A stretch of DNA of 64,000 bases from Escherichia coli O127:H6 str. E2348/69. GTDB taxonomy: Bacteria > Pseudomonadota > Gammaproteobacteria > Enterobacterales > Enterobacteriaceae. The stretch's first letter is position 1; every line of letters starts with the position of its first letter. The DNA is taken from assembly GCF_000026545.1 (NCBI RefSeq), contig NC_011601.1. One strand, 5' to 3'. The position numbers are program-made. Of the stretch, positions 9,001-12,000 are shown piece by piece.

Positions 9001-12000
9001 GATACTGGCAAAGTGATGATCGTTGGTGATGACGACCAGTCAATCTACGGCTGGCGCGGGGCGCAGGTGGAGAATATTCAGCGTTTCCTTAATGATTTCC
9101 CCGGTGCCGAAACCATTCGTCTGGAGCAGAACTACCGCTCCACTAGCAACATTCTGAGCGCCGCTAACGCCCTGATTGAAAACAACAACGGGCGTTTGGG
9201 TAAAAAGTTGTGGACCGATGGCGCGGACGGTGAGCCGATTTCCCTCTATTGCGCTTTTAACGAACTCGACGAAGCGCGTTTTGTGGTTAACCGTATCAAG
9301 ACCTGGCAGGATAACGGCGGGGCGCTCGCCGAGTGCGCCATTCTCTATCGCAGCAACGCCCAGTCGCGCGTGCTGGAAGAAGCACTGTTGCAGGCGAGTA
9401 TGCCGTACCGTATTTACGGCGGGATGCGCTTCTTCGAACGCCAGGAAATCAAAGATGCGCTCTCGTATTTACGCCTGATTGCCAACCGCAACGACGACGC
9501 GGCGTTTGAGCGCGTGGTGAATACGCCAACGAGGGGTATTGGTGACCGGACGCTGGACGTGGTACGTCAGACATCGCGCGATCGCCAGTTAACACTGTGG
9601 CAGGCGTGCCGCGAATTATTGCAGGAAAAAGCGCTCGCCGGGCGTGCTGCCAGCGCTTTGCAACGGTTTATGGAACTGATCGACGCCTTAGCGCAAGAAA
9701 CTGCCGATATGCCGCTGCATGTACAGACTGACCGGGTAATTAAAGACTCCGGCCTGCGCACCATGTACGAGCAGGAGAAGGGCGAAAAAGGTCAGACGCG
9801 TATCGAAAACTTAGAGGAACTGGTGACGGCAACGCGCCAGTTCAGCTACAACGAAGAAGACGAAGATTTAATGCCGCTGCAGGCATTCCTCTCCCATGCG
9901 GCGCTGGAAGCGGGCGAGGGGCAGGCGGATACCTGGCAGGATGCGGTGCAGTTGATGACGCTACACTCGGCGAAAGGTCTGGAATTCCCGCAGGTGTTTA
10001 TCGTTGGTATGGAAGAGGGCATGTTCCCAAGCCAGATGTCGCTGGATGAAGGCGGGCGTCTGGAAGAAGAACGCCGTCTGGCCTACGTTGGCGTAACCCG
10101 CGCGATGCAGAAACTGACGCTGACCTACGCGGAAACCCGCCGTCTATATGGCAAAGAGGTTTACCATCGCCCGTCGCGCTTTATCGGTGAGTTGCCGGAA
10201 GAGTGTGTGGAAGAGGTGCGCCTGCGCGCCACGGTAAGCCGCCCGGTCAGCCATCAACGGATGGGTACGCCGATGGTCGAGAACGACAGCGGCTACAAGC
10301 TCGGCCAGCGCGTACGCCACGCTAAGTTTGGTGAAGGCACCATCGTCAATATGGAAGGCAGCGGTGAGCATAGCCGTTTGCAGGTGGCGTTCCAGGGCCA
10401 GGGTATTAAATGGCTGGTGGCGGCTTACGCCCGACTGGAGACGGTATAATTTACGATTCCGTTGCCGGATGCGGTGCGCCACACCGCATCCGGCATCAGT
10501 AACTTACTTAGCGCACTTCTTCACATCAATATTCCAGTCAGCACCAGACGCAACCTGATGTTTCTGCGCGAAATTATCCATATTCAGCGCCACGGAAACA
10601 TTCAATAAGCTGTTCAGATACACCATCGGCTGGCCTTCCGGCACATCGCCGAAGCTTGCGACATACGGCATTTTCCCTGCGTATTTTTGCTGGGAACCTT
10701 CGGAAATGGTCACACACAACGTGTCGTTGAGTTTGATTCCTGCCTGATTCAGCAACTCGTCGCTGATATTGCTCCAGACGTTGCCGTACTGAATATCGAG
10801 AATCGGGATATTGCCCTTCACTTCACCTTTTGTTGCTTTGGCTTTCTGATAAGAAAGTTCGACAACTTTTGCAGGAAGCTCTGGCCCCACCTGCTCGAAC
10901 GTGATCGCCCCGGAAGCCAGACGTGCACCGGTGTAGGCATACACGTCACGACCGTGGAAGGTATATGACTTTTCGGAACCTTTCAGACGGTTGGTTTTTT
11001 CATCGATTTGCCGGACGCTCTCAATACCCAGCGATTCCGCCACCAACGTGAGCGTACCGTTATCTGGTGAAACGAAGTACTGACCATTTTTGGTTTTCAG
11101 CACTACCGATTTACGCTCTGTACCAACACCAGGATCGACCACGCTAACAAACACCGAACCTTGCGGCCAGTAATTGGCAGTCTGATACAGGCGGTAAGCG
11201 CCTTCCCAGATGTTATACGGTGGAATTTCGTGTGTTAAATCAAATATTTTAAGATTATGGTCAACGCCGAAAGCGACCCCTTTCATCGCCGAGACGGCAC
11301 CATCTTTCAGGCTAAAATCCGTTTGTAAAATCAAAGCGTTATCCGCATAAGCGGATGATGACCCCAGACAGGTTAATAAAAATAATGTTGCGAGCGTTTT
11401 TTTCATTTTTGTTTCCCTTCATTTATCTGATGATTTTCCAGCTGTGTAGCCAGCCCCAGTTTGTCTGGCCTCCTCGAGTGTACAATGTTTAACCTTTCTG
11501 CTCGACGGAAATCATGGTGACAAAAGGATAGCGTTGCCACGGGATTGCCTCGCCTTTCATATACATATGTGAAATTGTGCCATCAAGATAAAGCAGCTGC
11601 TCAACGTTCAGTTTTGCTTTGGCATAACAGGCAAAATCATAAAAATTTGTCGCCTGCTGGCTCAACAAAAACACGGCGTTCCCATGTTTATTAATCCCAA
11701 CACCGTTACGAATTTTACGTGAGGCGACGTTGGGATGAATACGCGGATTAATTACACCGTTTTCCATCAACAATGGCCCTGACTGCACCGCAAACTGAAT
11801 CTCTTTACTGGTTTTAAAGGCATCCAGACGAACGATGCCGACTTTATCTCCCGCGACATAAAACACTCCGCCAGGACGAATAAAGAAATTCCCTTCACCT
11901 GAAGCGAGATTTAACGCCACCTTCTGCTGACCGTTTTCGATGTACAAACCGAGCGGCGCATAGCTTTCATCATAGATGCCGCCGTTCATCGCCATCTGCA

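Follow-up and report, generated by a model that had tools for sequence, protein, structure and literature searches.

Proteins of the DUF62 family are homotrimers with active sites at the subunit interfaces; IDxxFGN is a conserved motif of the family, and the ribose-binding aspartate of TDFG and the PxNG motif both take part in ligand binding (PMC4859513). The hydrolase type is defined by an Asp-Arg-His triad that activates water (D68, R75 and H127 in PH0463), whereas the halogenases lack this triad and bind the halide via Y70 and G131 (SalL) or T80 and S158 (FlA) (PMC4859513; PMC10491745). All DUF62 hydrolases characterised so far are cytoplasmic and have been proposed to repair (R)-S-adenosylmethionine ((R)-SAM) (bioRxiv 10.1101/2025.08.29.672840; PMC10491745). 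Their role is still debated, and the current proposal, namely removal of the inactive (R)-SAM, is sensible only in the cytoplasm. Here, a DUF62 gene was analyzed that is located in a 64,000 bp stretch of the genome of Escherichia coli O127:H6 str. E2348/69 (assembly GCF_000026545.1, contig NC_011601.1), hereafter the window. The gene product is predicted to be a hydrolase-type enzyme with a Sec signal peptide, and its closest relatives outside Escherichia and Shigella were found in Helicobacter.

The DUF62 gene and the fold of its product

A preliminary description of the window had placed an open reading frame (ORF) of the DUF62 family at 10504–11406. The coordinates proved exact; the ORF lies on the minus strand and coincides with the RefSeq coding sequence WP_000751610.1, named "SAM hydrolase/SAM-dependent halogenase family protein", where SAM is S-adenosylmethionine. 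A segment of 1039 bp containing the ORF matched NZ_CP059840.2 with 100% identity. All motifs quoted in that description were present in the translation, namely QTDFSLKDG (residues 28–36), VVDPGVG (89–95), PDNGTL (114–119) and GNVWSNI (208–214). Strong purifying selection acts on the gene, as shown by a ratio of non-synonymous to synonymous substitution rates (dN/dS) of 0.05–0.06 in both E. coli and Helicobacter pylori. Thus, the ORF is genuine and has not arisen by chance. The coding sequence and its two domains are located as follows:

10504..11406, minus strand: DUF62 coding sequence, 300 amino acids (aa) plus stop, ATG start (ORF list, RefSeq, PF01887 and PF20257, dN/dS)
10885..11331, minus strand: SAM_HAT_N domain (PF01887), residues 26–174, with the ribose-binding D30 in the TDFS motif and with the PDNG motif
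10534..10815, minus strand: SAM_HAT_C domain (PF20257), residues 198–291, with the motif D204-x4-G-N209-V-W-S-N213

A profile search upheld the assignment to the DUF62 family, and both Pfam domains scored far above their curated cut-offs. SAM_HAT_N reached 180.1 bits against a cut-off of 26.3 (E-value 2.7e-53; profile positions 2–145 of 145) and SAM_HAT_C reached 66.9 bits against 25.5 (E-value 2e-18). A sequence search of the PDB returned DUF62-family chains exclusively, with E-values from 1e-43 to 1e-21; these were the Thermotoga maritima protein 2zbu (1.1e-43), SalL, ClA1, MJ1651, PH0463, TTHA0338 (2cw5) and fluorinases. Modeling of the mature protein as a monomer using AlphaFold2 with a 62-sequence alignment led to a model with a mean predicted local distance difference test (pLDDT) score of 95.1 and a predicted template modeling (pTM) score of 0.89. 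With this model, Foldseek found 2zbu as the best match (TM-scores 0.87/0.92), followed by SalL, ClA1, FlA and PH0463. The best 40 PDB matches were all chains of DUF62, SalL or FlA proteins, with TM-scores of 0.69–0.88 normalised to the query and 0.81–0.92 normalised to the target, and the earliest unrelated match appeared only at an E-value of about 0.02.

The ligand-binding residues are conserved as well. D30 was invariant in the 149 relatives compared (149/149) and so was PDNG, while in the C-terminal domain, where the D204-IQY-G-N209 motif is present, D204 was retained in 128, N209 in 131 and N213 in 135 of them. Membership of the protein in the DUF62 family is beyond doubt and is already annotated in RefSeq. 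No match to PADLOC or PHROGs was found for the DUF62 protein or for the product of the neighbouring gene yigE, so these searches gave no sign of a phage or defence origin.

Catalytic type

In HMMER alignments, D91, R98 and H151 of the E. coli protein fell column for column on D68, R75 and H127 of PH0463 (1wu8/2wr8). The codons of the putative triad are the following:

11134..11136, minus strand: D91, triad residue 1 (PH0463 D68), conserved in 142 of 149 relatives
11113..11115, minus strand: R98, triad residue 2 (PH0463 R75), conserved in 136 of 149 relatives
10954..10956, minus strand: H151 of the TFHGRD motif, triad residue 3 (PH0463 H127), conserved in 124 of 149 relatives

The R98 column was the only one in which wild-type MJ1651 (2f4n, Arg) differed from the mutant entry 22uy, which is titled R89A and was aligned as Gln. 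The three triad columns contain Tyr, Thr and Tyr in SalL, whose halide-binding Y70 aligns with V89 of the E. coli protein. Where the halogenase "NSR" motif has Arg, the E. coli protein has Leu and 2zbu has Ala, and this position is not diagnostic. These alignments allow us to classify the protein as a hydrolase-type DUF62 member and not as a halogenase.

With the cytoplasmic hydrolases PH0463 (1wu8, 2wr8), MJ1651 (2f4n, 22uy), 2zbu, StDUF62 and SaciSAMH the protein shares the two-domain fold (TM-scores 0.82–0.92), 30–34% identity, the TDFG, DPGVG-x2-R, PDNG and FHGRD motifs and the Asp-Arg-His triad. The chemistry would be expected to be alike too, with water attacking C5' of SAM to give adenosine and methionine. 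Unlike these enzymes, the E. coli protein is predicted to carry a Sec signal peptide of 21 residues, and its C-terminal tail contains a cysteine proposed to pair with Cys231. The halogenases SalL, ClA1/ClA2 and FlA belong to the same superfamily and have the same fold, and the C-terminal domain of the E. coli protein is nearest to that of SalL and ClA1; they differ in lacking the triad, which the E. coli protein keeps together with V89 in the column of SalL Y70.

The similarity of the protein to its relatives is mosaic. The N-terminal domain (residues 22–178) matched 2zbu, MJ1651 and PH0463 with E-values from 1e-35 to 1e-30 and the chlorinases at about 1e-15. For the C-terminal domain (residues 180–300), the chlorinases SalL and ClA1 were matched at about 1e-14 and 2zbu at 3e-3.

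Predicted export signal and cysteine pair

The preliminary description had also claimed a Sec-type signal peptide at the start of the protein. This claim is supported by sequence rules, that is, by the layout of n-, h- and c-regions, and by comparison with homologues. The corresponding features are given below:

11344..11406, minus strand: signal peptide MKKTLATLFLLTCLGSSSAYA, residues 1–21, with a predicted signal peptidase I cut before D22 (read from the sequence and by comparison)
10507..11343, minus strand: predicted mature protein, residues 22–300 (AlphaFold2 model, Foldseek)
10714..10716, minus strand: Cys231 codon, proposed disulfide partner of Cys298 (co-occurrence)
10513..10515, minus strand: Cys298 codon, in the C-terminal tail beyond the PDB-aligned region (alignments stop at about 289–292)

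The n-region contains K2 and K3, the h-region comprises 11 residues (L5–G15), and the c-region ends with A19-Y20-A21, with DNAL after the cut. The best 8-residue Kyte–Doolittle window of the h-region had a value of 2.3–2.7 in the E. coli protein and near-identical sequences. The conserved fold begins at residue 24–26, which matches the N-termini of the cytoplasmic homologues; those in the PDB start 3–15 residues ahead of the TDFG motif and have no N-terminal extension. The next possible start codon, M41, lies downstream of the essential D30. A functional cytoplasmic form could not arise from this internal start, because D30 would be removed.

To compare N-termini between species, homologues were collected from one genome per species, which gave 79 analysable sequences with 56–96% identity. 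An extension with n-, h- and c-regions was found in all of them (79/79), their sequences being unrelated, and four matched the lipobox pattern. These homologues came from Escherichia, Helicobacter, Aeromonas, Pasteurellaceae, Edwardsiella, Thorsellia, Neisseriales and Desulfobacterales, and also from Chitinophagaceae, Cytophagales, Verrucomicrobiota, Synergistota, Tissierellia, Fusobacteriales, Thermotogota and Planctomycetota. A wider census used the best 150 cluster representatives at 50% identity, 125 of which were interpretable: 68 were exported-like (16 with a lipobox), 47 started directly at the fold and 10 were ambiguous. In addition, 13 of 21 residues are identical between the E. coli and H. 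pylori proteins in the signal region and 253 of 279 in the mature part, which is typical behaviour for signal peptides. Taken with the sequence rules, this comparative evidence makes Sec export of the E. coli protein very likely, and a soluble periplasmic location is strongly indicated.

The sequence LLTC13 was considered as a lipobox and rejected: Thr at position –1 is non-canonical, and Cys13 is not conserved, being replaced by Gln in H. pylori SA213A and missing from most Aeromonas sequences. The lipobox pattern was found in three Aeromonas sequences, and true lipoboxes were present in the more distant relatives P0124, P0160 and L058.

Cys231 and Cys298 tend to occur together. Both were found in 35 of the 149 relatives and neither in 111; three had the C-terminal cysteine alone and none had Cys231 alone. 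All 18 sampled members of the proteobacterial clade, counted within the 35, carried the pair. On the basis of this co-occurrence, the two residues probably form a disulfide, as would fit a periplasmic protein.

Relatives in Helicobacter and other bacteria

The closest sequences outside Escherichia and Shigella were 300 aa proteins of H. pylori and Helicobacter acinonychis with 88–89% identity (88.7% for HP0709 of H. pylori). The H. pylori homologues sit in clusters of thousands of members and HP0709 is apparently widespread in this species. At the nucleotide level, the E. coli gene and HP0709 are 83% identical, with 64% identity at third codon positions, and the comparison gave dN 0.062, dS 0.99 and dN/dS 0.06. 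The GC content of the gene is intermediate in both hosts, being 42.9% against 38% for the H. pylori genome and 47.8% against 51.4% for the window.

Next in similarity were the proteins of Aeromonas (72–76%, all species sampled), followed at 66–74% by those of metagenome-assembled genomes of Neisseriales and Burkholderiales, Haemophilus paracuniculus, Edwardsiella, Thorsellia and Bibersteinia. Neighbour-joining analysis placed H. pylori as sister to Escherichia within a clade of gamma- and betaproteobacteria. These results indicate an old inter-phylum transfer from an Escherichia-like lineage to the ancestor of H. pylori, which would have been followed by strong purifying selection. No report of the relationship between the E. 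coli and H. pylori genes and no functional or localisation study of HP0709, jhp0648 or O25413 was found in the searchable literature.

HP0709 (UniProt O25413) resembles the E. coli protein in its length of 300 aa, the layout of its signal and the cysteine pair. It differs in its genomic setting, in being apparently widespread as against a presence in 44% of E. coli genomes, and in its conflicting public names. In complete chromosomes, HP0709/jhp0648 is flanked by rsmH/HP0708 on one side and by the homA/homB outer-membrane-protein locus on the other, and uvrA and rpoN are near (PMC6083042); one example is the copy in the chromosome CP079344.1 (locus L003, positions 6001–6903). According to a published survey, the gene borders a prophage integration hotspot (PMC11321410). 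The region 3' of HP0709 varied between strains (loci L003–L006): three loci had an ORF of 656–661 aa without a Pfam match, another locus encoded an HP_OMP protein farther downstream, and some contained a gene with a Fic domain.

HP0709 was included in an outer-membrane vesicle (OMV) proteome list (PMC8756444), and antibodies to it are among listed patient serum markers (PMC11394471). In a genome-wide association study (GWAS) of gastric cancer, an association was reported for the HP0709 variant D49N and the gene was called poorly annotated (PMC6090961). The corresponding codon (window 11260–11262; HP0709 nt 145) encodes Asp in E. coli too, in a loop following the first helix of the N-terminal domain. 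Members of the clade carry the names "acetolactate synthase", "adenosyl-chloride synthase" and "SAM hydroxide adenosyltransferase" in databases. The first two are almost certainly wrong and have caused confusion in at least one publication that discusses HP0709.

Proposed function and alternative explanations

Given the predicted periplasmic location, the preliminary description had suggested a different nucleoside substrate or a non-canonical role. The sequence gives no hint of an altered chemistry: the ribose-binding Asp, the water-activating triad, PDNG and D-x4-GN-x3-N are all retained. The simplest reading would be an unchanged family reaction on a substrate from outside the cell. SAM is made only in the cytoplasm, and therefore the substrate of a periplasmic enzyme would have to be external. 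E. coli is not known to import SAM, whereas adenosine and methionine can both be imported. Scavenging would therefore be the most economical function.

The proposed sequence of events is as follows. After Sec export and cleavage between A21 and D22, the protein would fold as a soluble periplasmic enzyme, presumably a trimer by homology with other family members, and would probably be stapled by the C231–C298 disulfide. D30 would hold the ribose hydroxyls, and D91, R98 and H151 would activate a water molecule for SN2 (bimolecular nucleophilic substitution) attack on C5' of a 5'-adenosyl sulfonium compound. The likeliest substrate would be SAM released from lysed or other cells or supplied by the host or the diet; the products, adenosine and L-methionine, would both then be imported, which would make the reaction a scavenging step. 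Taken as a whole, this chain, in which a periplasmic hydrolase scavenges external SAM-like adenosyl-sulfonium compounds, is put forward tentatively as the favoured reading; its substrate and role are what we infer from the residues and the location. A broader proposal, that exported DUF62 proteins form a phylum-spanning class of periplasmic or surface SAM hydrolases harvesting extracellular SAM in the form of adenosine and methionine, and that the benefit was large enough for one of them to be passed between an Escherichia-like gammaproteobacterium and the ancestor of H. pylori, is possible but doubtful.

Comparable arrangements are known. Borrelia burgdorferi exports Bgp and MtnN, nucleosidases of 5'-methylthioadenosine (MTA) and S-adenosylhomocysteine (SAH), for purine and methionine salvage (PMC7557402). 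As in the proposal for E. coli, a usually cytoplasmic enzyme for SAM-related adenosyl-sulfur compounds carries a signal peptide and is located at or near the surface; the differences are the unrelated MTA/SAH nucleosidase (MTAN) fold, cleavage of the glycosidic bond to give adenine, and MTA and SAH as substrates, so that this is an analogy only. In E. coli, the periplasmic hydrolases UshA, CpdB and AphA turn non-importable adenosine derivatives into an importable nucleoside. They differ from the DUF62 protein in being phosphatases or phosphodiesterases of unrelated folds that act on phosphate esters rather than sulfonium compounds. H. pylori is a methionine auxotroph. It is also without de novo purine synthesis (PMC8502122).

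Several observations weigh against SAM scavenging by an exported enzyme. External SAM is scarce and chemically unstable, and 55% of E. coli genomes can do without the DUF62 gene. Neither a transporter gene nor a nucleoside or methionine gene was a conserved neighbour in the 81 loci with 93 immediate neighbours that were surveyed. The protein missed both equivalogs for (R)-SAM hydrolases, scoring 132.2 bits against 350 for NF058624 and 115.8 against 470 for NF053629; it therefore represents a distinct subfamily, and none of the characterised enzymes, including the archaeal and thermophile ones, is its orthologue. Neither an enzyme assay nor a localisation study of an exported DUF62 member was found in the searchable literature, and the OMV listing of HP0709 is weak evidence of localisation because ribosomal proteins appear in the same list (PMC8756444).

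The nearest alternative, which is essentially the earlier suggestion, keeps an exported and active enzyme and gives it another 5'-substituted adenosine as substrate, with a role in detoxification or in a different kind of salvage. Candidates would be decarboxylated SAM, other adenosyl-sulfonium compounds, 5'-halo-5'-deoxyadenosines and 5'-O-sulfamoyl nucleoside antibiotics. A location outside the SAM-making compartment would agree with this, as would scores far under the (R)-SAM hydrolase cut-offs and a substrate-capping C-terminal domain nearer to the chlorinases (about 1e-14) than to 2zbu (3e-3), the N-terminal domain showing the opposite. The clade is also common in Bacteroidota, Verrucomicrobiota and Aeromonas of soil and water, where nucleoside antibiotics occur. 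However, the adenosyl-binding and water-activating residues are all canonical, no resistance or biosynthetic genes were near in the 81 loci (93 neighbours), and no family member is known from the searched literature to act on such compounds; another substrate seems rather unlikely. A role at the host interface instead of in nutrition, through immunosuppressive extracellular adenosine, SAM depletion or an adenosine-binding or antigenic protein, would fit the purifying selection that has acted strongly on the gene in H. pylori, a gastric pathogen, since the inter-phylum transfer, the D49N association with gastric cancer (PMC6090961), the serum antibodies (PMC11394471) and the OMV listing (PMC8756444). 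This role cannot be ancestral, because most carriers are free-living soil and water bacteria; moreover, a GWAS association is not a mechanism and nothing places the protein beyond the periplasm. A host-interface role is considered improbable.

The two remaining alternatives concern the location and the chemistry. If the N-terminus were non-functional, or an uncleaved anchor facing the cytoplasm, the protein could repair (R)-SAM like StDUF62, SaciSAMH and MJ1651, in line with the cytoplasmic location of all characterised hydrolases. What speaks against this is a canonical arrangement of n-, h- and c-regions in which small residues occupy positions –3 and –1, the presence of Sec or lipoprotein signals of unrelated sequence in 79 of 79 relatives, the complete absence of the extension from cytoplasmic relatives, and the cysteine pair, which fits an oxidising compartment. 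(R)-SAM repair needs the cytoplasm and would be incompatible with the predicted periplasmic location. In addition, the DUF62 gene is the only copy in the E. coli genome (median of one place per genome), and a cytoplasmic SAM-repair role would therefore not be covered by it. Cytoplasmic repair is thus given very little weight. A chlorinase or fluorinase, as implied by names such as "adenosyl-chloride synthase", would share the fold, about 30% identity to SalL and the C-terminal domain nearest to SalL and ClA1, and a UniProt-derived name of this kind was used for HP0709 (PMC6090961). The halogenase reading was ruled out for practical purposes, and can hardly be right, given the presence of the triad, V89 at the position of SalL Y70 and a score of 84.7 bits against a cut-off of 400 for the fluorinase equivalog TIGR04507.

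In the searchable literature, which did not extend to the main biochemical studies, neither the exported phylum-spanning clade, nor the place of the E. coli DUF62 gene in it, nor HP0709 as a xenologue was described. A large conserved clade built for export, including the sole DUF62 gene of E. coli and HP0709, needs an explanation other than (R)-SAM removal. If external SAM scavenging were true, (R)-SAM repair could not be the general function of hydrolase-type DUF62 proteins, and a new entry route for purine and methionine would be added for gut and gastric bacteria. HP0709, a gene flagged by gastric-cancer GWAS and serology, would obtain a function and its misnomers could be put right. The E. 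coli and H. pylori proteins, being 88.7% identical, represent an unusually clear case of inter-phylum gene transfer among human-associated bacteria. Should the enzyme only hydrolyse SAM without a nutritional effect, the outcome would be a modest refinement of annotation.

Presence and absence in Escherichia coli

Of 5426 complete E. coli genomes, 2413 (44%) contained the DUF62 gene, in single copy and practically always on the chromosome. An intact empty junction of the K-12 type, consisting of uvrD, a spacer with a repetitive extragenic palindromic (REP) sequence and yigE, was found in 3012. Together, the two arrangements account for 5425 of 5426 genomes, and the locus is therefore a clean two-allele polymorphism. 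Thus, the gene is accessory, as the preliminary description had proposed; it was also right that the interval between uvrD and corA of K-12 MG1655 contains yigE, besides the tiny ysgD, and no DUF62 gene. The variable segment and its left border are located as follows:

10486..11487, no strand: segment present in E2348/69 and replaced in K-12 MG1655 by a 119 bp REP-containing spacer (BLASTN)
10464..10494, no strand: REP-type palindrome (GCCGGATGCGGTG ... CACCGCATCCGGC) in the gap between uvrD and the DUF62 gene, left breakpoint of the presence/absence polymorphism (hairpin –29.6 kcal/mol)

The alignment with K-12 ends inside the REP palindrome at window position 10485 on the left, and the right breakpoint is at the yigE stop codon. 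The position of the palindrome at the breakpoint suggests loss or exchange mediated by REP sequences. The K-12 spacer in place of the gene, delimited at about 146 bp in locus L002 (3147–3292), contains REP sequences and resembles a bacterial interspersed mosaic element (BIME).

The description of the gene as inserted was not borne out to the same degree. Between E2348/69 and another E. coli lineage, dS of the DUF62 gene was 0.35 (dN/dS 0.05), similar to the dS of 0.46 of the flanking core gene yigE. The representative of a second Escherichia species has the gene as well, with 96% identity, and the breakpoint lies in a REP sequence. No other genus of Enterobacteriaceae was represented among the 80 best loci of the one-genome-per-species scan. 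The data are at least as compatible with an old, horizontally acquired resident of Escherichia, since lost in many lineages, as with a recent insertion.

In one complete genome, that of E. coli HS-02 (NZ_CP172818.1; locus L087, positions 3055–3912), the DUF62 gene is a pseudogene that is frameshifted and contains an internal stop codon. The yigF gene of HS-02 is also marked as having an internal stop, and therefore a sequencing error is possible.

Gene neighbourhood

The features directly upstream of the DUF62 gene are these:

11414..11420, minus strand: Shine-Dalgarno-like GAAGGGA, 7 nt 5' of the ATG (inferred from the sequence)
11489..12253, minus strand: yigE, exported phosphodiester glycosidase of the NAGPA/DUF2233 family (Pfam PF09992, 6e-18; annotation)

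The gene uvrD (8287–10449, plus strand) is convergent with the DUF62 gene and the REP palindrome separates the two. On the other side, yigE lies upstream on the same strand with a gap of 82 bp, and the N-terminus of YigE likewise has a signal-like hydrophobic segment. No promoter-like site was found in this 82-bp gap, and elsewhere there were weak consensus matches only. In carrier strains, yigE and the DUF62 gene may form one transcription unit of two exported hydrolases. The adjacency is found in Escherichia only, since no YigE homologue was located beside the DUF62 gene in any other genus compared.

To survey the neighbourhood more widely, ORFs lying up to 4.5 kb from the gene were called for 81 loci and then clustered. 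No conserved neighbourhood was detected; recurrent clusters were either specific to a genus (Aeromonas, Chitinophaga) or generic (LysR regulators, ABC-F ATPases). A Pfam scan of the 93 immediate neighbours revealed no family in more than two loci.

A second accessory replacement is located just 2 kb from the DUF62 gene, in the interval between corA and rarD (window 13609–14951, minus strand). It consists of low-GC genes for a DUF943 protein (165 aa, GC 34%) and a protein of the DUF3289/YPO3983 family (282 aa, GC 33%). The two ORFs of E2348/69 overlap by 4 nt, and K-12 carries yigF–yigG at this place.

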